A DNA stretch of 64,000 nt from Dehalococcoidia bacterium (GCA_965217625.1 OZ244557.1:1469827-1533826); one strand, 5' to 3'; positions 3,909 to 51,672 are shown, counted from the first letter of the stretch. Made by a program: numbers and translations. The notes: generated from the letters alone by a model not told the origin.

Positions 3909-5486
3909 CTACGGGCGGACGCCCACCTTGGCCTTCGGGCCCAATTGGCTGCGCACGGCCTCGTAGGCCAGTTCCAGGAAGCGATGCACGTACGACCGCG
4001 TCTGGCGCGGGTCGATGATGTCCTCAATGCCGAAGGCCTCGGCGGTGCGGAACGGGTTGCGGAACTGCAGCAGGTGCGTCTCGATCTCTTTGCGCCGCGC
4101 GTCGGGGTCGGGCGCGGCCTCGATCTCGCGCTTGTAGGCCGCCGCGACGCCGCCCTCTATCGGGATCGAGCCCCAGTCGCCCGCCGGCCAGCCCACGCGG
4201 TAGTTGATCCGGCCGACGTTGGCCGTCGCCTGCCCGGCCATGCCGAAGTTCTTGCGCGTGATCACGGTGAAGACGGGCACCGTGGCGAGATAGGTCGCCC
4301 AGTAGGCGCGCATCCCGTGGCGCAGCGTGCCGGTGCGTTCCGCTTGCGGGCCGAGCATGAAGCCTGGCACGTCGGCCAGAAAGACGATGGGGATGTGGAA
4401 GTGGTCGCACAATTCGACGAAGTGACCCTGTTTGCCGGCCGAGTCGGCCGACATCGCGCCCGCGAGCACGTAGGGGTTGTTGGCGACGATGCCCACGGGG
4501 TAGCCACCGACGCGCGCGAGAAGCGTGTGGACGGAGGCGCCGAACTCCGGCTTGATCTCGAAGAACTCGCCGTCGTCGACGATCAGCTCCACCACCCGCC
4601 GCATGTTGTAGGCCCGCGTCCGCTTCCGTGGGACGATCGAGAGCAACTCCTGCTCTTCGCGATCGGGCGGGTCACTGCTGGGGCGCACCGGCGGCTGCTC
4701 GTAGACGTTGCTCGGCATGTAGGAGAGGAAGGTCTTCATCTGACGCAGCGCGTCCAGCTCGTCACTGGCGCGGTTGTCGAGCGCCCCGGAGGTCCCGATG
4801 TGGATGTCGGGGCCACCGAGCTCCTCCTTCGTCACCTTGTGTCCGAGTGCCCGCTCGACCACCGGCGGACCGGCGGCGAAGAGCGATCCTTCGGGCGTCA
4901 TCACCGTGAAGTGTCCCAACACGGCCGCGGCCGCGGCGCCGCCCGCGGCCGGGCCGGGGACCGAGTAGACCAGCGGCACCTCCTGGCCGGCGAGGATGGC
5001 GTGTCCGAAGGCATCGAACGAGCTCGGCAGATGGCCATGGCCGTCTCCCTCGGCGGCGACGTTGGCGGCCGCGCTCTCGATGAAGTGGATCAGCGGCACC
5101 CGGTACTCCCGCGCCATGTCCTCGAAGAAGTGACTCTTCGAGCGTTCCTGGCCGCTGATGTCGGCGGCCCCCCCGGAGACCGTGAAATCCGACCCCGACA
5201 CCACGACGCGGCGGCCGTCGACCTTGGCCAGCCCGCCCACGTGGGCCACGGGCGTGAAGTCGACGAATTGCCCCTGCTCGTACGTGCCCTGGCCCGCCAG
5301 GCTGCCGACCTCGTGGAAGCTGCCGGGGTCGGCGATCGCGTCGATGCGCTCCCGGATCGTCAGCTTCCCCCGTGCGTGCTGCCGGGCGACGCGTTCCTCA
5401 CCGCCGAGCTTGAGCGCCAGGCGGCGGCGCATATTGAGTTCATCGACCTCGGGCTGCCAGTCGCGGGGCTGCTGCGGTTGGGGCAT
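3909..5486 (-). CDS. Acyl-CoA carboxylase carboxyltransferase (beta) subunit, PccB/AccD-like (CT1)
   Basis: Carboxyl_trans family. Diagnostic segments VDELNMRRRLALKLGGEERVARQHARGKLTIRERIDAI and PGFMLGPQAERTGTLRHG. Start at MPQPQQPRDW (5486). Confidence 0.85.
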   Translation of the reverse strand: MPQPQQPRDWQPEVDELNMRRRLALKLGGEERVARQHARGKLTIRERIDAIADPGSFHEVGSLAGQGTYEQGQFVDFTPVAHVGGLAKVDGRRVVVSGSDFTVSGGAADISGQERSKSHFFEDMAREYRVPLIHFIESAAANVAAEGDGHGHLPSSFDAFGHAILAGQEVPLVYSVPGPAAGGAAAAAVLGHFTVMTPEGSLFAAGPPVVERALGHKVTKEELGGPDIHIGTSGALDNRASDELDALRQMKTFLSYMPSNVYEQPPVRPSSDPPDREEQELLSIVPRKRTRAYNMRRVVELIVDDGEFFEIKPEFGASVHTLLARVGGYPVGIVANNPYVLAGAMSADSAGKQGHFVELCDHFHIPIVFLADVPGFMLGPQAERTGTLRHGMRAYWATYLATVPVFTVITRKNFGMAGQATANVGRINYRVGWPAGDWGSIPIEGGVAAAYKREIEAAPDPDARRKEIETHLLQFRNPFRTAEAFGIEDIIDPRQTRSYVHRFLELAYEAVRSQLGPKAKVGVRP

Positions 5487-9716: not shown

Positions 9717-11543
9717 TCACGGCTCCTGCGTGTAGCCGTCTTCCCCCTCGCGGATGACGATGGTGGCGTTCGCGGGGACGTCCTCCAGCACGGTGCGGGT
9801 TCCGCCGGCGGGCCAGATGACCGTGACCCGCGCGACCAGCGGCGGATCCGCGGCCCCGGCGCCTATCCCGCTGCCTAGTCCGAAGTGCAGCGTCGACTCG
9901 CTTTGGCCGAGGAAGTGCGTCGCGACGCCGGCCTCCCGCAGCTGCACGCCGGCGCCGGCCTCCACCTCCACCTCGACGCGCGCGCCGATCGCGTCCCGGT
10001 TCGAGGCCGAGCCGATCAGGCGCAGGCGCAGCCAGGCGAGCTGATTCCCCCCATCGTTGCGGTACAGCGTGGGTTGGCCGGCGTTGTTGACGACGAACAC
10101 GTCGAGGTCCCCGTCGCGGTCGTAGTCGAAGGTCAGCAAGCCCTTGCCCGCGGCCGTGGAGACGATGCCGGCGTCGGCGGACCGCTCGGCCATGCGTCCC
10201 GTGCCGTCGTTCTCCCAGAGGCGCATGGGGTCGTCGTTGAAGACCACCTCGTGCTCCGTGAGCACGAAGCCGTTGGTCATGATCAGGTCCGGGTCGCCGT
10301 CGTTGTCGGCGTCGAAGAAGGCGGCCCCCCAGCCCCAGTAGCCGTCGCGCACGTCGGCGGCGTCCGTCTGGTCGGAGAAGCGCCGGCCGCCCTCGTAGGC
10401 GAAGAGGCGGTTGCCGGAGGGGCGCCAGTCGCACATCCCGGTGAGATACGACTCGCCCCCCAGGCAAGGGAACGAGCTCGCGATGGCGGTCACGAACCAG
10501 TCCAGATCGCCGTCCCCATCGACGTCGCCGAAGGTCGAGCCCATGCCGTTCTCGTCCGTGCCGACGCCCGCCGCGACGGTGCCGTCGCTGAACGTGCCGT
10601 CGCCGTTGTTCCAGAACAGGCGCGAGCGGCCGTAGTCGCCCGCGACGGCCAGGTCCGGCCAGCCGTCGGCGTCCAGATCGACGAAGGCGGTGCCGAAAGA
10701 GAAGGCGCCGTCGAAGCCCGAGTCCGTCAGCGATTCGGCATCGGCCATGGAGACCCCGGCGGCGGCGGTCACGTCCTCGAAGAAGCCGGGCTGCTCCGCG
10801 CCCAAGTTGCGCAGCAGGCGCGCGTGCGCGGGCGCGGGCGCGGGCGCGTCGCGCTCGATGTACTGGGCCAGGCGCCACTCCGTGGTATGGATGTCCAGCC
10901 AGCCGTCGCGATCGAAGTCCCCCATGGCGACGCTCATGCCGGCGCGGGGCGCGTCGTCCGCGACGGCGGCGCCCCGCGCCACGGCCTCCTCCCGGAACGC
11001 ACCGTCGCCGTCGTTGATGTAGAGGAGGAAGCGCGGCGCCGCGATCGTGGTGACGAACAGATCCTGGTCGCCGTCGTTGTCGATGTCGCCCCACCATGCC
11101 CCGTTGGTCGGATAGGAGATCGTCGCCAGCCCGGCGGCCTCCGTCACGTCGGCGAAGGTCCCGTCGCCCTGGTTGCGGAAGAGGAGGCCGGGGCCGTCCA
11201 GCCGGGTGACATAGAGGTCGATCCAGCCGTCGCCGTCGTAGTCGGCGGCGGCGGCGCCGCCGGTGGCTCGCTCGACCAGGCAGCCGGTCGCGCCGGGCGG
11301 GTAGCCGGCGAAGATGCAGTCGGGCGTGGCCCGGAACTCGTGCTGGACATAGGAGAGGCCGGACTCCGCCGTGACGTCGGTGAACAGCAAGCGGGGTGGC
11401 GGCGGCTCGTCCGCCCCGCCGCAGGCCGTGGTCAGCAGCGCGGCGGCGACGCCGCCCAGCGCCCACGCCCCACAGCCGCGAACGATTGACCGCGCCCGCC
11501 AGACAAGCGCGGCACGGCGGACGGAGGGGTGGGGGAGCGGCAT
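9717..11543 (-). CDS. CRTAC1-family protein (FG-GAP/VCBS beta-propeller repeats plus a C-terminal ASPIC/UnbV domain), lipoprotein
   Basis: Multiple DxDxDGxxD repeats (DYDGDGWIDLYVT, GDIDNDGDQDLFVT, FDADNDGDPDLIMTNG). C-terminal RLRLIGSASNRDAIGARVEVEV. LLTTACGG lipobox after a signal sequence. Start uncertain (11543 or 11720). Confidence 0.75.
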   Translation of the reverse strand: MPLPHPSVRRAALVWRARSIVRGCGAWALGGVAAALLTTACGGADEPPPPRLLFTDVTAESGLSYVQHEFRATPDCIFAGYPPGATGCLVERATGGAAAADYDGDGWIDLYVTRLDGPGLLFRNQGDGTFADVTEAAGLATISYPTNGAWWGDIDNDGDQDLFVTTIAAPRFLLYINDGDGAFREEAVARGAAVADDAPRAGMSVAMGDFDRDGWLDIHTTEWRLAQYIERDAPAPAPAHARLLRNLGAEQPGFFEDVTAAAGVSMADAESLTDSGFDGAFSFGTAFVDLDADGWPDLAVAGDYGRSRLFWNNGDGTFSDGTVAAGVGTDENGMGSTFGDVDGDGDLDWFVTAIASSFPCLGGESYLTGMCDWRPSGNRLFAYEGGRRFSDQTDAADVRDGYWGWGAAFFDADNDGDPDLIMTNGFVLTEHEVVFNDDPMRLWENDGTGRMAERSADAGIVSTAAGKGLLTFDYDRDGDLDVFVVNNAGQPTLYRNDGGNQLAWLRLRLIGSASNRDAIGARVEVEVEAGAGVQLREAGVATHFLGQSESTLHFGLGSGIGAGAADPPLVARVTVIWPAGGTRTVLEDVPANATIVIREGEDGYTQEP

Positions 11544-44147: not shown

Positions 44148-44579
44148 TCAGCTCCCGTCGGCCGCGATGCAGCGGTCGCAGGTCACGTAGAGCTCGATGC
44201 GGTGGCCCACGATGTCGCCCGGGATGTCGCTGCCGATGACGCGCAGGACGCGCTCGACGGTCGCGGCGCGGAACTCCCCCACGTCGCCGCAGCGGACGCA
44301 GACGGTGTGATGGTGGTGCTCGACACGGGAGAGGCTGTACCGAGGGGTGCCGTCGATCAGGTTGAGGCGGCAGATGATGCCGGCCTCGCGCAGGAGCTTG
44401 ATCGTCCGGAAGATCGTGGCGCGGCCCACCCAGGGCAGCTCATCGCCGATCTCCTCCGCGGTGAAGCCGCCGGGCTTCCCGTCGAGGATGTCGATGACGG
44501 CGCGGCGCGGCGCCGTCGATCGGTAGCCCCGGTCCTCGAGCACGGCCATGATGTCGAGTCGTGACGGGTGACCGGCCAT
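44148..44579 (-). CDS. zur: Fur-family transcriptional regulator, probable Zur
   Basis: RSTAPRRAVIDILDG...FTAEEI DNA-binding helix region. HHHHTVCVRCG and CDRC metal sites. Start ambiguous (ATG 44600, 44579 or 44549). 44600 is unlikely because the candidate promoter and operator overlap it. Confidence 0.8.
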   Translation of the reverse strand: MAGHPSRLDIMAVLEDRGYRSTAPRRAVIDILDGKPGGFTAEEIGDELPWVGRATIFRTIKLLREAGIICRLNLIDGTPRYSLSRVEHHHHTVCVRCGDVGEFRAATVERVLRVIGSDIPGDIVGHRIELYVTCDRCIAADGS

Positions 44580-44583
44580 CAGA

Positions 44584-44628
44584 ATGATACCTCGTATCAT
44601 GGATAGCGGAGCCTGCTCGCGCCGTCAA
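44584..44628 (-). promoter_or_regulatory. Candidate zur-znuACB promoter (TTGACG, 17 nt, TATCCA) with an overlapping 7-3-7 palindrome ATGATAC-ctc-GTATCAT (putative Zur box)
   Basis: Seen directly in the sequence. The palindrome sits at or just downstream of the -10, the classic repressor-operator geometry. AT-rich palindromes of this type are Fur-family operators. Confidence 0.45.
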
Positions 44629-44749
44629 GCCTGGGGGGCGGTCGCGCGTGAGTCGGGGGGGGGGGGCGTGAGTCGGGGGGCAACCCTCCGACCTCCTGTG
44701 GCGGCTCATCGCAGCGCCGACAGGCGCTCGGTGACTCGGCACCACTGAC

Positions 44750-46195
44750 TTACCGGGGCATCTCGCGCTGATGCAGATCGATCAGCTCGCCGAGGCGGCT
44801 AACGCCCTGCCTCGGCACTCTCCCCCGTTCGTCACTATGCATTATGTCCATCAGCCTCCCAATTCTTCGAGGGTCTGCTGTCTTCGTTCTTTGCGAAATG
44901 CACTGGGGCTGTGTCAAATCCGCACCGTCTCTGAGAAGTTGCAGTTGCGCCAACGCTGGTGCCTGCTCATCCAGGTCTTGTTGGTCCGCAATGTACAAAT
45001 GGCTCTCGATCACATCCAGCACCCGCTCTGTGTCTCTAGTCTGACGCCCGCTGGGATCCGCTGCGTCGATATAATTCATGACATCACTGCCACGACACTT
45101 GCCTGAGAGAAATCGGCGATATAGTCCGGTATTGCCAAGCTTCAGTGCCACAAGCGGCGCAAGCAGCACAGGGTACATAAATCGCCGGACTTCCATGCTC
45201 TTGGCGAGCAACACTACCAACCGCACACAGTAGTCTATATCCCTGAGGGATAGTCCCACGCGGTCACAGATCACCGAGAAGGCTGTGGCGAACACATCAA
45301 GTTCTTCGGTGTGCAGTCTTGTGTTGCCTTCCTTGCCGAGCTCCTCAAAGAACTCCGCCAGTCCGTACCTGTCGATCATGTGCTTGCAGAATGGCTCTGA
45401 GCTCACTTCTGACAGCGTGAGCTCCATATCGAAGAAGCGCCGGAGGTAGACATCCGCGTCGATCCCTCCATAGACCGACTGGAGGGCCGAGCAGAGTTCA
45501 GTCCGGTTCACGCCAAACACGAACACCATGTGGGGTACGTCGAAGATGTGCTTGACCCTCTCCAACAGCTCGATGGCGAAGGTCGGGCGACATCTGTCCA
45601 GCTCATCAATGATGAAGACCAGAGGGTGCTCGGTCTTCCGATGCACTTCCGATGCCAGGTCCCGCAAGGACTCCCTCAGCTCATCCTTGCTGGCTCGCTG
45701 CGCAGCATAGGCACCGAGAAGATTCCCTTGATCCGGTCCCCTCGGCTCTACCTGGAACGTGATCCCGACTTGTTTGCTTAGGACCCCCAGCACGTTCTGG
45801 CGGATCAGTGGTACGGCAGCCTTGGCAATCCGGCCAGCCATGTCCTTGAGTTCCGATCCGCTGAAGTACGCCGAGAGCTGGCCGAGGATCGCTAGAAGTG
45901 GGTCGTCGCAGAAGTCGTCTTCCCAGGCATTGAAATAGATGGCTCTGAAGCCATCGCTCTGCAACTCCGCCTGCCAGCGCTGGAGGAAGAATGTCTTACC
46001 TGTCCCCCAATGGCCATGGACGCTGAGCACGAACGGGGATTCCTGATCGCGGACGACGTTGGTCAACCGTTCGGCGACCTCCGCCCGATTGAGGACATCA
46101 TCGTGCCATGGTTTCCCTGCCGAAACATCCGGCTCCAGCACCTTCAAGCTCAATGGGTCACGAGTCTTCGCTGCGGGCGTACCATCTTCGCTCAT
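44750..46195 (-). CDS. KAP-family P-loop NTPase
   Basis: Walker A HGHWGTGKTFFL. Walker B FIIDELDRC. Size and architecture typical of KAP NTPases. Locally depressed GC (about 55-60% versus about 70%). Confidence 0.8.
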   Translation of the reverse strand: MSEDGTPAAKTRDPLSLKVLEPDVSAGKPWHDDVLNRAEVAERLTNVVRDQESPFVLSVHGHWGTGKTFFLQRWQAELQSDGFRAIYFNAWEDDFCDDPLLAILGQLSAYFSGSELKDMAGRIAKAAVPLIRQNVLGVLSKQVGITFQVEPRGPDQGNLLGAYAAQRASKDELRESLRDLASEVHRKTEHPLVFIIDELDRCRPTFAIELLERVKHIFDVPHMVFVFGVNRTELCSALQSVYGGIDADVYLRRFFDMELTLSEVSSEPFCKHMIDRYGLAEFFEELGKEGNTRLHTEELDVFATAFSVICDRVGLSLRDIDYCVRLVVLLAKSMEVRRFMYPVLLAPLVALKLGNTGLYRRFLSGKCRGSDVMNYIDAADPSGRQTRDTERVLDVIESHLYIADQQDLDEQAPALAQLQLLRDGADLTQPQCISQRTKTADPRRIGRLMDIMHSDERGRVPRQGVSRLGELIDLHQREMPR

Positions 46196-46378
46196 TGTTG
46201 GACTCCACTACGTTCTCGGTCGGCCGGTTGCTGGGGTCTCAGTCTCCGCGCTGAGCATATCCACAGCTACGCCTTGGGACAGGCACATGGGCCGCGGCAT
46301 GCACGACCACCGCGTGAAGTCGGCACCGACGACGACTTTGCCGCAACAGGGCGGCTAGCAACCAACCGCCCCACCCCA

Positions 46379-48595
46379 TCACACCCCCACGCCCGACGGC
46401 CACCAATTCCAGCGACCGACGACCTTCACCAGCGCCGGGACGATCAAGGTGCGTGTGACGAACGTGTCGATCAGGACGCCGGTGGCGACGGCGAAGCCCA
46501 GCTGCATGAGGTCTTGCAGGGGCAGCAGCATGAGCGCGGAGAAGGTGCCGGCCAGGATGAGGCCGGCGGAGGTGATGACGGGGCCGGTGCGGGCGAGCGC
46601 GTGCGCGGTCGCCTCGGCGAGGGGGGCGCGGCGGACCTCCTCGCGGATGCGGGACATGAGGTAGATGTTGTAATCGACGCTGAGGGCGTTGAGGAAGACG
46701 AAGAGGAAGAAGGGCACGCTCTCGCCGATGCCGCCGTGACCGAGCAGCAGGATGAACACCGCGACGGCGAGGCCGAGCGTCGCGAAGTAGGTGAAGGCGA
46801 TGGTGGCCATCAGGTAGAGCGGCGCGACGGCCGAGCGCAGGAGCAGCGCCAGCACGACGCCGATCGCGAGCAGGATGGCCGGCAGGACGACCAACGCATC
46901 GCGGTTGCCGGCGGCGCGGGTGTCGGCCGCCTCGGGCGTGTCGCCGCCGACGAGGACGCTGCCCGGCGGGAGGCCGGCCGCGGCCGCGCTTTCGCGGGCG
47001 ACATCGCGCAGCTCCGCCACGGCGTCGAGCGCATCGGCGGCGTAGGGGTTCATCGCCAGCACGACGTCGATGCGGGCGGCGCCGCCGTCGGGCGAGACGA
47101 AGCGCGACCGGGCGGCGTCGGGAGGCCCGGGGCCGCCGCCCGGTCCGGCCGTGCCGAAGGGGCGGCTGGGGCCCGACGCCCCGGCGACGTCGGGATGCCC
47201 GGCCAGGGCGAGCGTCAGAGCGTCGATCCGCTCCAGCGACGCCGGGTCCAGCGCGTGGTCGCCGGGCGGGAGCGAGACGTAGACGCGCGTGGGGGAGAGT
47301 TCGCCGGCCGGGAAGCCGCCCCGCAGCAGCTCGAAGCTGCGCACCGATTCGGTGTCGTCGGGCAGGCTCTCCAGCCGGTCGTAGTTGGGGCGGAAGGCGA
47401 GCAGGCCGGCGATGAGCACGCTGAGGGCCAGGGCTGTGCAGGCGAGCGTCGTGCCGGGGCGCCGCAGCACGACCGCGCCGATGCGCCCGTAGACGCTGCG
47501 CCGCCAGTCGGCCGCGGCGGCGGGCCGGGGGTCGAGGCGGGGCTGCATCGGCCAGTAGGCGCGGCGCCCGACGACCGTCAGCACGGCCGGGATCAGGGTG
47601 AGCGCGGCGAGCATCATCAGCGCGACGGCCAGCGCGATGACCGGCCCGAGCGTCTGGTAGGAGCGCAGGCTGGCGAAGCCGAGCGCGGCGGAGGCGACGA
47701 GGATGGTCGCGCCGGCGGAGGCGACGGCGCCGCCGACGCCGCGCATCGTGCGGCGCATCGCCTCGTGGCGGTCGCCGTGGCGGGTCAGCTCCTCGCGGAA
47801 GCGCGCCGAGACGAAGAGCACGTAGTCGGTGCCGGTGCCGAACAGCACGACGGTCATGATGCCGGTGGCCTGGCCGGAGATGGGCAGGTCGAACTGCTGG
47901 GCGACCCAGGCGCCGATCCCGCCGGCCAGCTGGAAGACGAGCCCGACGCCCAGCAGCGGGATGACGGCGACGATGGGCGATCGGTAGATGGCGAGCAGCA
48001 GCGCGAGGACGAGCGCGACGGTCACGAGCAGGAGGACGGTGTCGATCTGCGCGAAGACGCCCACGAGGTCGACGACCAGCCCGCCGGGCCCGCCCACGGC
48101 CACCTCGACGCCGGGCAGGTCGAGCGCCGCCGTGCGGTCGCGGATCGCGTCGACGGTGTCGATGAAGGGCGGCTCGGCCGGTTCGCCGGCGATGTCGGCG
48201 AGGACGTAGAGCGTCGTGCGGTCGGGCGAGACGAGGGGGGAGCCGGGGTCGCCGGCGTCGGGCGCGCGCACGTGGATGACGTTGCCCGGGGCGCCGGGGC
48301 CGGTCAGCCAGCCGGCGAGATCGGCCGCGGCGGCGAAGGTCGCCGGGCGGAGCCCGTCCGGCTCGCGGAAGACGGCCAGGACGGGCGTCCCGGCCGACGG
48401 GAACCGCTCCCGCGCGAAGTCGTAGGCGCGGGTCGATTCGGCGTCGGCGGGGAGGAAGAGCGCGGCCTCGTTCTCGCGCACGTCGCTGAGGCGCGGCAGC
48501 TGCGAGATCAGCAGCCCCGCGACCACGAGCCAGACGAGCAGCGTGACCCACTTGCCGCGCGGACTGCTCGCGAAGTCGGTGATGCGACCGAGCAC
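46379..48595 (-). CDS. MMPL-family (RND superfamily) membrane transporter
   Basis: 738 aa, two 6-TM bundles separated by soluble loops. MMPL-like N-terminus MLGRITDFASSPRGKWVTLLVWLVVAGLL. Confidence 0.8.
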   Translation of the reverse strand: MLGRITDFASSPRGKWVTLLVWLVVAGLLISQLPRLSDVRENEAALFLPADAESTRAYDFARERFPSAGTPVLAVFREPDGLRPATFAAAADLAGWLTGPGAPGNVIHVRAPDAGDPGSPLVSPDRTTLYVLADIAGEPAEPPFIDTVDAIRDRTAALDLPGVEVAVGGPGGLVVDLVGVFAQIDTVLLLVTVALVLALLLAIYRSPIVAVIPLLGVGLVFQLAGGIGAWVAQQFDLPISGQATGIMTVVLFGTGTDYVLFVSARFREELTRHGDRHEAMRRTMRGVGGAVASAGATILVASAALGFASLRSYQTLGPVIALAVALMMLAALTLIPAVLTVVGRRAYWPMQPRLDPRPAAAADWRRSVYGRIGAVVLRRPGTTLACTALALSVLIAGLLAFRPNYDRLESLPDDTESVRSFELLRGGFPAGELSPTRVYVSLPPGDHALDPASLERIDALTLALAGHPDVAGASGPSRPFGTAGPGGGPGPPDAARSRFVSPDGGAARIDVVLAMNPYAADALDAVAELRDVARESAAAAGLPPGSVLVGGDTPEAADTRAAGNRDALVVLPAILLAIGVVLALLLRSAVAPLYLMATIAFTYFATLGLAVAVFILLLGHGGIGESVPFFLFVFLNALSVDYNIYLMSRIREEVRRAPLAEATAHALARTGPVITSAGLILAGTFSALMLLPLQDLMQLGFAVATGVLIDTFVTRTLIVPALVKVVGRWNWWPSGVGV

Positions 48596-48646
48596 AAGGG
48601 ACTCCCTGCGAGTCGAGAGAGGATGTCACGCAAAAATAAGGTGGGG

Positions 48647-48722
48647 TGGTGGGCCCTCAGGGGTTCGAACCCTGGACCTTCGGATTAAAAGTCCGCTGCT
48701 CTACCAGCTGAGCTAAGGGCCC
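48647..48722 (-). tRNA. tRNA-Lys (anticodon UUU), CCA encoded
   Basis: GGGCCCUUAGCUCAGCUGGUAGAGCAGCGGACUUUUAAUCCGAAGGUCCAGGGUUCGAACCCCUGAGGGCCCACCA. Clean cloverleaf, 7-bp acceptor stem, TpsiC GGUUCGAAC, anticodon loop CUUUUAA. Confidence 0.9.
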
Positions 48723-48897
48723 CCTGCCAGTCTGGCGCACGGCCCGGCGGGGCGTCGAGGGGGACGGGGAGGCCAGGACCGCCCGGCGACCAACCGCGAG
48801 GACGCCGCGCTGCTCAAGGCCGCGCGAACCGTCGAGAATGACGGAGCGGCGGCGAGACGCCACACGTACATTAGCAGCCTCTTCACCTGTGCCACGA

Positions 48898-50667
48898 TCA
48901 GATGCCGTTGGCGAACGGCCACACCTCTGTCACGAGTTTGGCTAGTTCTCCGCTCCGCTTCCGAATAGTCTCCTCGTTCCAAATTCGTGGCGGATCCTTC
49001 AATAGCACCCAGTTCAGACGCAAGGCGGTGTGCTTCTCCAGGGTCACCATCTTTTGATCCCACGGATCGTTCGACAGCGATGCATTCAGTTTTCCGGTAA
49101 CAAGTGTTAGGTTGCCAAGTTCCTTGACGGCTTGGTCTCGAGCGTTTTCTGCTTCGTCTCCACTGATGCCGGCTGGCAATGGCCAGTTCTTTCGCCATGC
49201 TTGTGGCATTATGTGCTCTCTGGTCAACTTGCCCTGATTCAGTGGTTCGGTCATGCCGCTCCTGAGCTGCGACTCAATGGCCTTCAGCACCATCGTCTGC
49301 CTTCCGATAGTGCCCCGTAGTGGGGTTCCGACGAGACTCTCTTCCAGCATTGAGTCTCTCGGCCAGATGCGGTTATCGACGGTCTGCTCATTCAGAAAGT
49401 CAATGATCACCTGGTCGGTCGTGGAAGAGCCACTTCCTTCTGCTCTTACCAGCAGTTCTACAAAAAGCCTGTTGAGCCCCTGCGACGGAACACCGCAAAG
49501 CATTCGCCGGACAAGGTAGCTCTCGATGGCCCGAGTGCTCCGTTCGCGTATATCGCCAGGGATATCTGTAGTATAGAGCCACATTAGAAGTGGCATCGTA
49601 ACACCGATTTCCATCTCCTTCATGCGGCCGAGGAACGCCTCAATCCCTGGAGTCCTCGCCTCTTCCAGGTCTTGATAGACCTGCCCAGCATCCCCGATGT
49701 CTGTAGCAACCTCTTCGATCGGCAGGTCACTGTCCGCCAAGAACCGACTGAACTCAGTAGACACGCTATCCGCGTTCACTTCATGCGTCCGAGTCCGCAT
49801 AATCACCCAGTAGTTCAGGAAGCGGTCCAGGTGGATACGGCTGATCCTTCCTTCATTCGTGCTGCCGCGCCACCACTCATTCGTGTCGAAACTTCCCCAG
49901 AGCTCTGTCGCCTTGGCCGCGTCATCGATCACGTTCGCCTCGTACATGACGGTGTTCTTGATGTGGTCAGACTCCTTCAACGGTTCAGCCCTGGCATTGA
50001 GGACAGAGAATATGAAGTGTGGTCTCTCACCCTCATCGAGATCAACAGTAGCCAGTTGCAGATACTCGGTGAGAACGGTTTCCAGCGCATCGGCTCGAGC
50101 ATCTCTGTTTGCGGGCTCTTCGTTCAGCCATGTTTCTATTGCCTGCGTGAAGAATTGATACGCCTTCCCAATAGAGCGCAAGGGCTTGCTCGTCTCGCTT
50201 AGGCCCCGCATGACATCTTGGAAGGACTGCAAATCATTGGCGTTAGACTGACGGACCTTGGTGTCGTCGTCAGCAGCCCTGCCCTGCTCCTGGTCACTAT
50301 TCAAAGTGAGCTGAGACATTCGGGTTGCTCTTTGGGTATCGTTGAGGTTCTGGAACGATTGTTGGGCCGCTCTAATCAGGAGTTGCAGAGTTGTCAGGCG
50401 CTGTTGACCGTCAACGACGATACGTTTCACAACGTGACCTGATTTGGCACTCTGCAATTGCAGCACGATGGCTCCCATGAAGTGGGGTGGGATTGTTTCC
50501 CCTGTCTTTGCTTCGAGGAGCTGTTCGGCGATCCGTTGAGCATCGCTCCAAAGTGGTTGCCACTGCCTTTCCTTCGTCCATGCGTAGGGACGTTGGAACA
50601 CTGGTATGCGATATGAGACAGGGGTGCCGAAGAGGCCCTTCAGGGTCTGTATGGCGGCTTCCATCAT
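48898..50667 (-). CDS. GmrSD-family type IV (modification-dependent) restriction endonuclease, DUF262 (ParB-like) plus DUF1524 (HNH-like)
   Basis: N-terminal FQRPYAW...DGQQRLTT (DUF262). C-terminal REHIMPQ (DUF1524 His-Me). Low local GC (about 53-55%). GGGAGGAG SD. Confidence 0.75.
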   Translation of the reverse strand: MMEAAIQTLKGLFGTPVSYRIPVFQRPYAWTKERQWQPLWSDAQRIAEQLLEAKTGETIPPHFMGAIVLQLQSAKSGHVVKRIVVDGQQRLTTLQLLIRAAQQSFQNLNDTQRATRMSQLTLNSDQEQGRAADDDTKVRQSNANDLQSFQDVMRGLSETSKPLRSIGKAYQFFTQAIETWLNEEPANRDARADALETVLTEYLQLATVDLDEGERPHFIFSVLNARAEPLKESDHIKNTVMYEANVIDDAAKATELWGSFDTNEWWRGSTNEGRISRIHLDRFLNYWVIMRTRTHEVNADSVSTEFSRFLADSDLPIEEVATDIGDAGQVYQDLEEARTPGIEAFLGRMKEMEIGVTMPLLMWLYTTDIPGDIRERSTRAIESYLVRRMLCGVPSQGLNRLFVELLVRAEGSGSSTTDQVIIDFLNEQTVDNRIWPRDSMLEESLVGTPLRGTIGRQTMVLKAIESQLRSGMTEPLNQGKLTREHIMPQAWRKNWPLPAGISGDEAENARDQAVKELGNLTLVTGKLNASLSNDPWDQKMVTLEKHTALRLNWVLLKDPPRIWNEETIRKRSGELAKLVTEVWPFANGI

Positions 50668-50697
50668 TAACTCCTCCCGGAAGGATGGCGGGCGCTG

Positions 50698-51672
50698 CTA
50701 GGAGCGCTCGAAGACGAGCTGGAACTCCATGATGCCGTGGTCGTCGATCGCCAGCACGATGAAGGCGCTGGGCGAGTCCATGTCGTAGTCGGCGAAGACG
50801 ATCTCGATCGACCCCACGACCGCCACCCGATCCCCGACGAGCTGGCCTTCCATCGGAATCTGCACCTCGCGCGTGACGCCGTGCAGCGTCAGGTCGCCCG
50901 TGGCCGTGACCGACAGCGTCTCCCCCTCGGCGGGCGCCGCATCGATGGGGATGGGCTCGGTGAGCGTGAAGGTGGTCGAGGGGTAGGTGTTCGTCTCAAG
51001 CGCCTGGCGGCGCAGGGCGCCGTCGCGGCGGCTGTCGTCGCTGGTGAGCGCGGTGAGGTCGACCTCGATGACGACCTCAGTGATCGCGGCGCCGTCGAAG
51101 ACGAGCGACCCCGTCAGGACCGTCGAGCGCCCAACGGCCGTCGTGGCGCCGATGCGCGCGAGTTCCTCCTCGACGCGGTAGCCGGCGAAGGACGACCCGT
51201 CGGCGAGCACCTCCCAGCGTCCGACGAGGCCGGCGTCGGCGGGGGCGTCCTCCTCGGTGGCTTCGTCAGCGGGGGCGTCGTCAGCGGGGGCTTCGGGTTC
51301 GGCCGTCGTCTCGGCCGCGGCGTCTTCAGCTTCTTCTGCTGCTTCTTGTGCCGCCGCCGCGGGGGCGCTGCCTTCGTCGCTCTGGGCGGTCGCGGAATCG
51401 GCGGCCGGCTCGTCCGCCTCGGGCTCCACCTCTGACTCGACCGGGGCGGCCTGCTCGGCGGCGGCCTGCTCGGCGGGGGCCGCGTCGGCATCGGATTCGG
51501 TGGGGGTGTCCGCGTCCGACGCCTGGGCGGCGGCCACGGCCTGCTCGAGCGCAACGGGCGGCGGGGCGTCGCCGCGCAGCACGAAGTACCAGACGGCGAT
51601 CACGATCACCGCGACGGCCAGCAGCGCGGCGCCACCACCGAGAACGAGTCGTCTCCTGGTCAGTTCCGGCAT
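50698..51672 (-). CDS. YceI-family (polyisoprenoid-binding-like) protein with N-terminal TM anchor and acidic linker
   Basis: C-terminal ~180 aa match the YceI domain (GRWEVLADGSSFAGYRVEE...LTLHGVTREVQIP). TM LAVAVIVIAVWYFVL. Confidence 0.7.
   Translation of the reverse strand: MPELTRRRLVLGGGAALLAVAVIVIAVWYFVLRGDAPPPVALEQAVAAAQASDADTPTESDADAAPAEQAAAEQAAPVESEVEPEADEPAADSATAQSDEGSAPAAAAQEAAEEAEDAAAETTAEPEAPADDAPADEATEEDAPADAGLVGRWEVLADGSSFAGYRVEEELARIGATTAVGRSTVLTGSLVFDGAAITEVVIEVDLTALTSDDSRRDGALRRQALETNTYPSTTFTLTEPIPIDAAPAEGETLSVTATGDLTLHGVTREVQIPMEGQLVGDRVAVVGSIEIVFADYDMDSPSAFIVLAIDDHGIMEFQLVFERS

Follow-up and report, generated by a model that had tools for sequence, protein, structure and literature searches.

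Two replacement slots around a native transporter gene

Replacement-type defense hotspots have been described in E. coli (PMC10121019) as well as in Vibrio and E. coli (PMC10250203), and recombination in the flanking sequences has been proposed as the route by which their cargo is transferred. The current analysis concerns a locus that most probably belongs to this group and lies within a 64,000-nucleotide (nt) stretch of DNA from a Dehalococcoidia bacterium (hereafter the window, given as one strand and numbered from its first letter). Two minus-strand genes are of interest: one encodes a KAP-family P-loop NTPase (44750-46195) and the other a GmrSD-type (DUF262 + DUF1524) enzyme (48898-50667). 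These are, in our assessment, most probably two unrelated, independently acquired single-gene defense cassettes that reside in neighboring integrase-free replacement hotspots. As in the described hotspots, short and unrelated low-GC defense cassettes occupy a fixed position among core genes and mobility genes are absent. Unlike those hotspots, the present locus has two (possibly three) junctions within 6 kb, its window cassettes consist of single genes, its host is an uncultured lineage of ~70% GC known from metagenome-assembled genomes (MAGs) alone, and one relative (L081) carries a 129-nt duplication of the target end. Neither islet overturns current understanding, as the locus is an ordinary example of integrase-free defense hotspots and both genes belong to already catalogued families (GmrSD-like type IV enzymes and PDC-S20/KAP). 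It does provide a base-pair-resolved case of integrase-free defense gene turnover in an uncultured high-GC lineage and carries the replacement-hotspot picture beyond the Proteobacteria. The most informative new details are an hsdM relic next to the KAP gene and the preservation, in nature, of a PDC-S20 gene that has become detached.

Between 41 and 54 kb, every real gene is encoded on the minus strand, in the order znuB, znuC, znuA, zur (44148-44600), KAP, MMPL (46379-48595), tRNA-Lys(UUU) (48647-48722), GmrSD and a yceI-like gene (50698-51672). The original prediction had recognized both accessory genes from the sequence, and its coordinates and family calls proved to be correct, since both are intact minus-strand open reading frames (ORFs) with Pfam and PADLOC matches. 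It had also placed their GC content 12-15 points below the surroundings. The low GC is borne out and its size is slightly larger: against a background of 1-kb bins (0.710, standard deviation 0.029, minimum 0.654), the KAP coding sequence has a GC of 0.574 (13.6 points lower, z = -4.8) and that of GmrSD 0.546 (16.4 points lower, z = -5.8). A sliding-window check agrees, as 1.5-kb intervals below 0.62 GC occur in the 64 kb solely over KAP, GmrSD and their immediate flanks, while the GC content at third codon positions (GC3) is 0.69 for KAP and 0.64 for GmrSD versus 0.89-0.97 for the neighboring genes. Deviations of 4.8-5.8 standard deviations are not normal gene-to-gene variance. Furthermore, all examined KAP and GmrSD homologs are low-GC genes (0.49-0.58), regardless of the host locus.

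Seven related loci were compared, with breakpoints placed at base level by tblastn and blastn. Four of these (L001-L004) are MAG loci recovered by scanning genomes for the MMPL protein, to which their own MMPL proteins are 89-95% identical in amino acid (aa) sequence; that scan returned MAGs labelled Dehalococcoidia, Chloroflexota or Acidimicrobiia. The remaining three (L081, L085 and L125) come from metagenome contigs. A scan of JGI metagenomes with the same protein yielded no relative above 77% identity and hence no gain for the hotspot census. Clustered at 90%, the MMPL protein belongs to a group of 28 members on contigs reaching 2.9 Mb. The order yceI/tRNA-Lys-MMPL is conserved in L001, L002, L081, L085 and L125, and the adjacency of MMPL to zur(-znuABC) in L001, L002, L003, L081 and L125. 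Among these relatives neither KAP nor GmrSD is a core gene, as both are missing or swapped in close relatives; together with their deviant GC, this confirms the proposal that both are horizontally acquired accessory genes of defense-type families. The MMPL/RND-type transporter gene (46379-48595, minus strand; Pfam MMPL 1.6e-126; GC3 0.97), whose product is 89-96% identical across L001-L004, L081 and L125, is a native core gene that separates the two islets. A longer plus-strand ORF was considered and rejected, the real MMPL gene being the one on the minus strand.

The slot holding KAP extends from the MMPL stop codon to the zur promoter. In the window it is filled by a 1.69-kb islet with a GC of 0.587 (44681-46373, minus strand), delimited by blastn breakpoints against L001 at 46374 and 44680. 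Across the window, L001-L004, L081 and L125, this position holds five mutually unrelated cargo types. L081 and L125 carry KAP alleles with 76% and 78% aa identity to the window protein. L001 has 3.0 kb of other genes in the slot (L001:12396-15166), all on the same strand and encoding a 160-aa ORF, a ThsB-like TIR protein (PADLOC ThsB 1e-62), Nmad2 (2e-69) and MazG_C (5e-79); L002 encodes a 1177-aa HKD(PLD)+SNF2 helicase (PADLOC C3a139, 3e-53), L003 a DUF7002 gene and a PD-(D/E)XK nuclease gene (PDDEXK_13/REase-ARP; L003:7587-9270), and L004 an 816-aa SMC_N/LmuB-like ATPase. No integrase or transposase domain occurs in any relative cargo gene with a Pfam match. Some of this cargo provides further candidates for defense systems. 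Within the L001 cargo, only the TIR gene matches PADLOC, and the TIR + Nmad2 + MazG_C cluster may be an uncharacterized TIR/nucleotide-modification or nucleotide-depletion system. Neither the DUF7002 nor the PD-(D/E)XK gene of L003 matches any PADLOC model, and the pair is a candidate two-gene defense system.

The second slot is formed by the 45 nt that separate yceI from tRNA-Lys, and here the window has received a 1.93-kb low-GC insertion (48762-50690, minus strand; blastn breakpoints). This islet consists of the GmrSD gene only, with no methyltransferase in the cassette. It is exactly missing from L001, L002 and L125, in which yceI, the 45-nt spacer and tRNA-Lys follow one another directly (L001 junction 9824|9826). 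In L081 the slot is instead occupied by genes for a 445-aa AAA_15/AAA_21 ATPase (PADLOC NsnB, 1.3e-45) and a 167-aa ORF. Copies of the yceI 3' end, forming a 129-nt direct repeat (~94% identical; L081:3100-3260 and 5290-5440), lie on either side of this insert, with no integrase nearby. Thus, the relatives exhibit two cargo types as well as the empty state. L085 carries the same GmrSD islet as the window at 99.6% nucleotide identity within flanks of only ~88-90% identity: from 48752 to 50769 the two differ by 8 substitutions and 2 single-base indels, as against some 11-12% of positions in each flank, and identity steps down at ~48752-48775 and at ~50769, so that the near-identical tract enters yceI by ~65 nt. 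The exchange tracts at this slot accordingly end in the last ~65-130 nt of the yceI-like gene (50698-51672, minus strand; Pfam YceI 4.1e-19). Between the GmrSD stop codon and the native tRNA spacer lies a GC-rich tail of 136 nt (48762-48897) that travels with the islet, being identical in L085. It encodes nothing recognizable and has no match in the other fetched sequences; a derivation from the yceI 3' end was evaluated and discarded, as the alignment score of 22 is not significant against shuffled sequences (18 +/- 2.6). Separately, the 5' half of the yceI-like gene (51226-51495) contains 15-nt tandem repeats of low-complexity coding sequence, which vary in length and align poorly between relatives.

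A third junction, between tRNA-Lys and MMPL, is polymorphic as well. In L004 it contains a 9.2-kb block of native GC encoding two enoyl-CoA hydratases, parts of a peptide ABC transporter and a CoA-transferase, and bordered by direct repeats of ~60 nt that correspond to the 5' untranslated region (UTR) and first codons of MMPL (L004:695-800 and 9930-10030; window 48577-48640). The same block is found upstream of MMPL in L003.

Several features of the two slots point to homologous recombination as the probable means of exchange at both: the cargo is precisely replaced, a near-identical islet sits in diverged flanks and ends inside yceI, mobility genes are absent, and synonymous divergence is raised near the KAP slot. 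For the last of these, dS between the window and L081 is 0.54 for KAP, 0.37 for zur and 0.27 for znuA versus 0.19 for MMPL. Presumably, DNA from a related strain would be taken up and recombined via the conserved flanking genes, thereby swapping the cargo between them, and exchange of this type would need neither an integrase nor an att site. The original prediction had noted that no integrase is present, and a domain search of the real genes between 41.4 and 53.3 kb likewise detected neither an integrase nor a transposase domain.

A number of observations weigh against this interpretation of the locus as a pair of defense hotspots. Only seven related loci stand behind the hotspot model, and in none of them was the MMPL/zur slot found empty. 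The L085 contig derives from a metagenome assembly of 3x coverage, in which a chimeric strain path could mimic the pattern of an identical islet in diverged flanks. The higher dS of KAP, zur and znuA may partly reflect the constraint on GC3 (0.97) in MMPL, and the 60-130-nt target duplications of L081 and L004 could equally have arisen from a trans-acting recombinase or from single-crossover insertion of circular DNA. With regard to function, phage defense by GmrSD and KAP is a prediction from their sequences, no effector domain is recognized in KAP by Pfam profiles or by structure matches, and to our knowledge the best PADLOC model of the GmrSD protein, Orf5, is uncharacterized.

A KAP gene detached from a type I restriction-modification operon

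Two lines of previous work bear directly upon the KAP gene. PADLOC arrived at its PDC candidates through "guilt-by-embedding", the surrounding systems being BREX, DISARM and type I restriction-modification (R-M) systems (10.1101/2024.01.29.577857), and KAP NTPases with uncharacterized C-terminal regions have been found to protect against phage (PMC13552941). PDC-S20 and COG4928 are not mentioned in the literature searched, nor is KAP in the papers listed for hsdM/hsdS. The window gene (44750-46195, minus strand) encodes a soluble protein of 481 aa that matches Pfam KAP_NTPase (PF07693) at 1.9e-33 (116.5 bits, cut-off 20) and, in the PADLOC check, the candidate family PDC-S20 (PDLC04959) at 4.8e-101 over 403 of 464 profile positions. 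Both the Walker A (GTGKT, G64-T68) and Walker B (IIDELD, I195-D200) motifs are intact and are invariant or nearly so in 48 homologs. Like PDC-S20 and EF_KAP (PMC13552941), the protein is the product of a single gene and combines a KAP_NTPase domain having intact Walker motifs with a C-terminal region devoid of known domains. Unlike EF_KAP and the classical KAPs, it is soluble, lacking both N-terminal and intra-domain transmembrane helices (the highest 19-residue Kyte-Doolittle mean is 1.37), and it is also shorter, with a C-terminal region of ~160 aa. PifA and QatA are weak matches (1e-17 and 1e-13, respectively).

A sequence search of the PDB with KAP returned nothing meaningful. In an AlphaFold2 model (predicted local distance difference test score of 82.5), the segment between Walker A and Walker B is a soluble hairpin of helices whose tip (residues 143-156) is disordered. 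Among solved structures, the model is matched best by the RADAR ATPase RdrA, followed by ORC/Cdc6, clamp loaders and NLR resistosomes, with TM-scores of only 0.3-0.44. Based upon this model, KAP would be an AAA+/STAND-like NTPase with an inserted helical hairpin and an all-helical C-terminal region, and most likely it would act as an NTP-dependent anti-phage sensor or effector.

The origin of the islet is suggested by what lies upstream of KAP. Four of the seven non-syntenic KAP homologs examined are located between hsdM and hsdS: in L082, L121 and L122, KAP sits directly between the two and the reading frames abut or overlap, while in L124 it is accompanied by other inserted genes. In the window, the 183 nt separating the MMPL stop codon from the KAP start encode a decayed HsdM C-terminus (FTR..P.PM....D.L..E.ET) in the correct register. 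This pseudogene relic (46235-46351, minus strand) corresponds to the 3' end of a type I methyltransferase gene, has tblastx matches at an identical offset in L082, L121 and L122, and yields a local BLOSUM62 score of 56 versus 19.7 +/- 3.7 for shuffled sequences, none of 2000 shuffles reaching 56 (z ~ 10). L081 shares the relic upstream of its own KAP. An hsdM relic in the register of the intact hsdM-KAP-hsdS operons argues that the KAP islet is a fragment cut from such an operon, and the window gene would thus be its detached descendant, with the relic retained. No hsdS relic was found downstream of KAP, and the window copy has neither hsdS, hsdR nor other type I R-M genes beside it. Such an origin fits the derivation of PDC candidates from type I R-M systems; the family was found via embedding in these operons, and the window copy itself lies outside one. 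It also accounts for part of the suggestion that the locus is a "decayed or mosaic" island: decay is evident for KAP, owing to the upstream relic, whereas a single island is not supported, as the islets are two and separate. Solitary copies of KAP are also found in L118 and L123, in addition to those in slots of the window type.

The KAP-carrying R-M operons appear, from their gene content, to be multi-gene embedding platforms. L121 and L122 contain small toxin-antitoxin-like genes (DUF433/DUF5615 and BrnT) between hsdS and hsdR, and L124 contains RusA, an AHJR/HEPN gene and a gene for a 1286-aa protein between hsdM and hsdS. Distant KAP relatives (28-38% identical) are encoded on 354 viral or prophage contigs in IMG/VR (including L126-L205), with no close relative on viral contigs.

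Embedding of this kind recalls PrrC, a gene with an NTPase domain nested in the hsd operon of the EcoprrI type Ic R-M system, and this likeness suggests a guard or back-up role when restriction is inhibited. Unlike PrrC, the window KAP has no identified anticodon-nuclease motif and is detached from R-M genes, and no relation in sequence or fold to PrrC has been shown; the proximity of KAP to tRNA-Lys, which is the substrate of PrrC, is most likely a coincidence. A more ambitious scenario would be that soluble KAP (PDC-S20) evolved inside type I R-M operons as a guard sensing the inhibition of restriction and now serves in the window, excised from its operon, as an autonomous anti-phage switch that is trans-acting or self-sufficient, and moreover that the locus uses an unrecognized integrase-independent insertion process duplicating 60-130 nt of its target. 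We regard this combination as speculative and rather unlikely.

Conversely, KAP could be the functionless remnant of a degraded type I R-M operon, with GmrSD as the sole working defense gene. The hsdM relic, the loss of hsdS and hsdR, the lack of a recognized effector domain and the absence of a promoter-like site on the coding strand would all be expected of such a leftover. However, the ORF is intact over 481 codons, its Walker motifs are invariant, solitary family members occur in L118 and L123 too, and dN/dS is 0.27 among the three syntenic alleles (window, L081 and L125) at ~19% nucleotide divergence. The detached KAP gene is evidently maintained under purifying selection, and a mere leftover is therefore improbable. 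Preservation of PDC-S20 by selection outside of a type I R-M context is a sound reason to consider this KAP subfamily for experiments. The 3' UTR of the gene contains a hairpin (GCGCC-N4-GGCGC, 44714-44727, minus strand) without a T-run, and the same element follows the KAP stop codon in L081; a terminator scan made no call on it. Overall, promoter/terminator and Rfam scans of the region left the coding strand empty save for the tRNA.

A stand-alone GmrSD-type enzyme

HEC-06 is a validated GmrSD-like defense system, and GmrSD-like proteins act as single genes (10.1101/2024.01.29.577857). The window enzyme (48898-50667, minus strand), an intact ORF of 589 aa, conforms to this organization. It matches GmrSD_N (PF03235) over residues 12-240 (5.8e-29) and GmrSD_C (PF07510) over residues 435-577 (2e-20), and its PADLOC matches are Orf5 (1e-81), HEC-06 (3e-47) and mREase_IV (4e-45). 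The N-terminal DGQQR motif is present (VVDGQQRL in the translation), as is the C-terminal motif EHIxP...GNLTL...N...N (REHIMP...LGNLTLV...NASLSN), which we take to be the consensus of the GmrSD C-terminal nuclease. The protein resembles the GmrSD/BrxU/HEC-06/SspE family in being a single polypeptide of ~590 aa with a DGQQR NTPase domain, a helical linker and a C-terminal His-Me-finger motif, and likewise in gene arrangement, as the window gene stands alone without a methylase and one homolog lies next to another R-M enzyme (L083). It is only distantly similar to the solved family members (the PDB search gave marginal matches alone, 9jfl at 2e-6 and 7dri at 4e-3), and its best PADLOC model is Orf5 rather than BrxU, SspE or HEC-06. 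By analogy to the family, the protein would be a stand-alone type IV enzyme, in which the DUF262 NTPase domain (DGQQR) drives the DUF1524 His-Me-finger nuclease. Its presumed substrate is DNA with modified bases, and an enzyme cutting such DNA would therefore need no partner methylase.

Compared with homologs of 78% identity, dN/dS is ~0.1, and the gene is thus under purifying selection. Contigs of 2.5-3.1 Mb from similar MAGs commonly encode homologs of 70-81% identity, and some genomes have two; no relative was found on the viral contigs of IMG/VR. The contexts of the homologs differ: one directly follows a type ISP/IIG enzyme (L083) and another stands alone among metabolic genes (L084). The cassettes of the window, L083 and L084 are alike only in the coding sequence and the ribosome binding site region, and they share no common ends, MITE-like (miniature inverted-repeat transposable element) or attC-like element.

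Alternative histories of the locus and its borders

The original prediction had viewed both genes as a single island straddling MMPL and tRNA-Lys, with the tRNA gene as an integration hotspot. On this reading, a single island would have integrated at tRNA-Lys, decayed and lost its integrase, leaving two remnants. The tRNA gene (48647-48722, minus strand; ARAGORN, Rfam 72 bits) does lie between the two low-GC genes, and tRNA genes are frequent landing sites of mobile genetic elements (PMC10250203). The polymorphism of the third junction, tRNA-Lys/MMPL, in L003 and L004 could be added in its favor, as could the decayed, fragmentary state of the KAP islet. Low-GC accessory DNA adjoining a tRNA gene is indeed a trait shared with tRNA-targeting islands. 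Unlike those islands, however, the locus has no integrase and no tRNA-derived direct repeat, its insertion lies on the 5' side of the tRNA, and a second islet is found beyond a core gene. The GmrSD islet begins ~40 nt 5' of tRNA-Lys and not beyond its 3' end. A direct repeat of the tRNA 3' end, the expected mark of integration, was absent from the window at up to 3 mismatches; both halves of the tRNA occur once only in the 64 kb, and a general repeat search from 44 to 51.8 kb returned chance-level GC-rich matches only. The repeat that does exist in L081 copies the 3' end of yceI. Since there is no tRNA copy, GmrSD is 5' of the tRNA, and native MMPL lies between the tRNA and KAP, the classical tRNA-island model fails.

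The distribution among relatives leads to the same result. The tRNA-Lys gene is found at the same position beside MMPL in L001, L002 and L125, all of which lack GmrSD, and both MMPL (GC3 0.97) and the tRNA are native, keeping their order in relatives without GmrSD or KAP. Furthermore, the presence of one islet does not follow that of the other: KAP occurs without GmrSD in L081 and L125, while L001 and L002 have neither, with other cargo in the KAP slot only. Two islets with two junctions that vary separately among relatives are incompatible with one island straddling MMPL and the tRNA, and a common origin of this kind is very improbable. Separate acquisition of two cassettes at adjacent hotspots is consequently the reading followed here.

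It is also conceivable that KAP and GmrSD form a two-component system that acts across the intervening genes, considering that both belong to defense-type families and share a strand within a span of 6 kb. The two had been viewed as an uncommon pairing, yet no pairing could be substantiated, as no other locus examined combines them. GmrSD is missing from the yceI/tRNA slot of L081 and L125, the syntenic KAP relatives, six non-syntenic KAP homologs have no GmrSD domain within 5-8 kb, and the GmrSD homologs of L083 and L084 have no KAP within 6 kb. Moreover, GmrSD-like proteins work as single genes (10.1101/2024.01.29.577857), and the natural partners of the KAP family are type I R-M subunits. 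A joint system is therefore highly improbable. Lastly, atypical but vertically inherited low-GC core genes can practically be dismissed, although three lineages (the window, L081 and L125) have KAP in a common slot: three relatives lack GmrSD at the very same site, four have unrelated genes in place of KAP, and members of both families have a low GC (0.49-0.58) in all of the host contexts examined, with z = -4.8 and -5.8 in the window.

At the zur border of the KAP islet lies a G-rich tandem duplication (44646-44680, two copies of GCGTGAGTCGGGGGG), which had been reported to contain a 12-nt poly-G tract and had been suspected of being a recombination scar. The duplication itself was confirmed: exactly two copies of the 15-mer GCGTGAGTCGGGGGG are present, at positions 44646 and 44666 (0.10 expected), and the window has no stretch of 10 or more G other than the G12 run at 44655-44666. 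Tandem Repeats Finder made no call on it. The duplication abuts the islet border on the zur side of the L001 homology breakpoint (44680), within native spacer sequence that precedes the zur promoter, and degenerate C-run+GAC repeats are present at the same place in L001 and L081. Judging from these alignments, it is a native repeat-prone spacer bordering the slot, with no demonstrable insertion scar.

The zur gene (44148-44600, minus strand; Pfam FUR 3.9e-22), which encodes a Fur-family regulator and is the first gene of the zur-znuABC cluster, forms the core-gene border of the KAP slot in L001, L002, L003, L081 and L125. Upstream of it is a conserved -35/-10-like pair (TTGACG ... TATCCA, window 44583-44640) followed by the palindrome TGATACGAGGTATCA at ~44583-44600, which covers the first ATG of zur; both the promoter pair and TGATACGAGGTATCA are conserved in L001, L002, L003 and L081. 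The palindrome resembles an autoregulatory Zur box, and translation of zur may actually begin at the ATG at 44579. In two relatives, a cation-diffusion-facilitator (zinc efflux) gene of native composition separates zur from the hotspot (L002:18122-19312 and L003:9956-11146); it is missing beside zur in the window, L001, L081 and L125. As its presence varies among relatives, the zur neighborhood has lost or gained a zinc-homeostasis gene.

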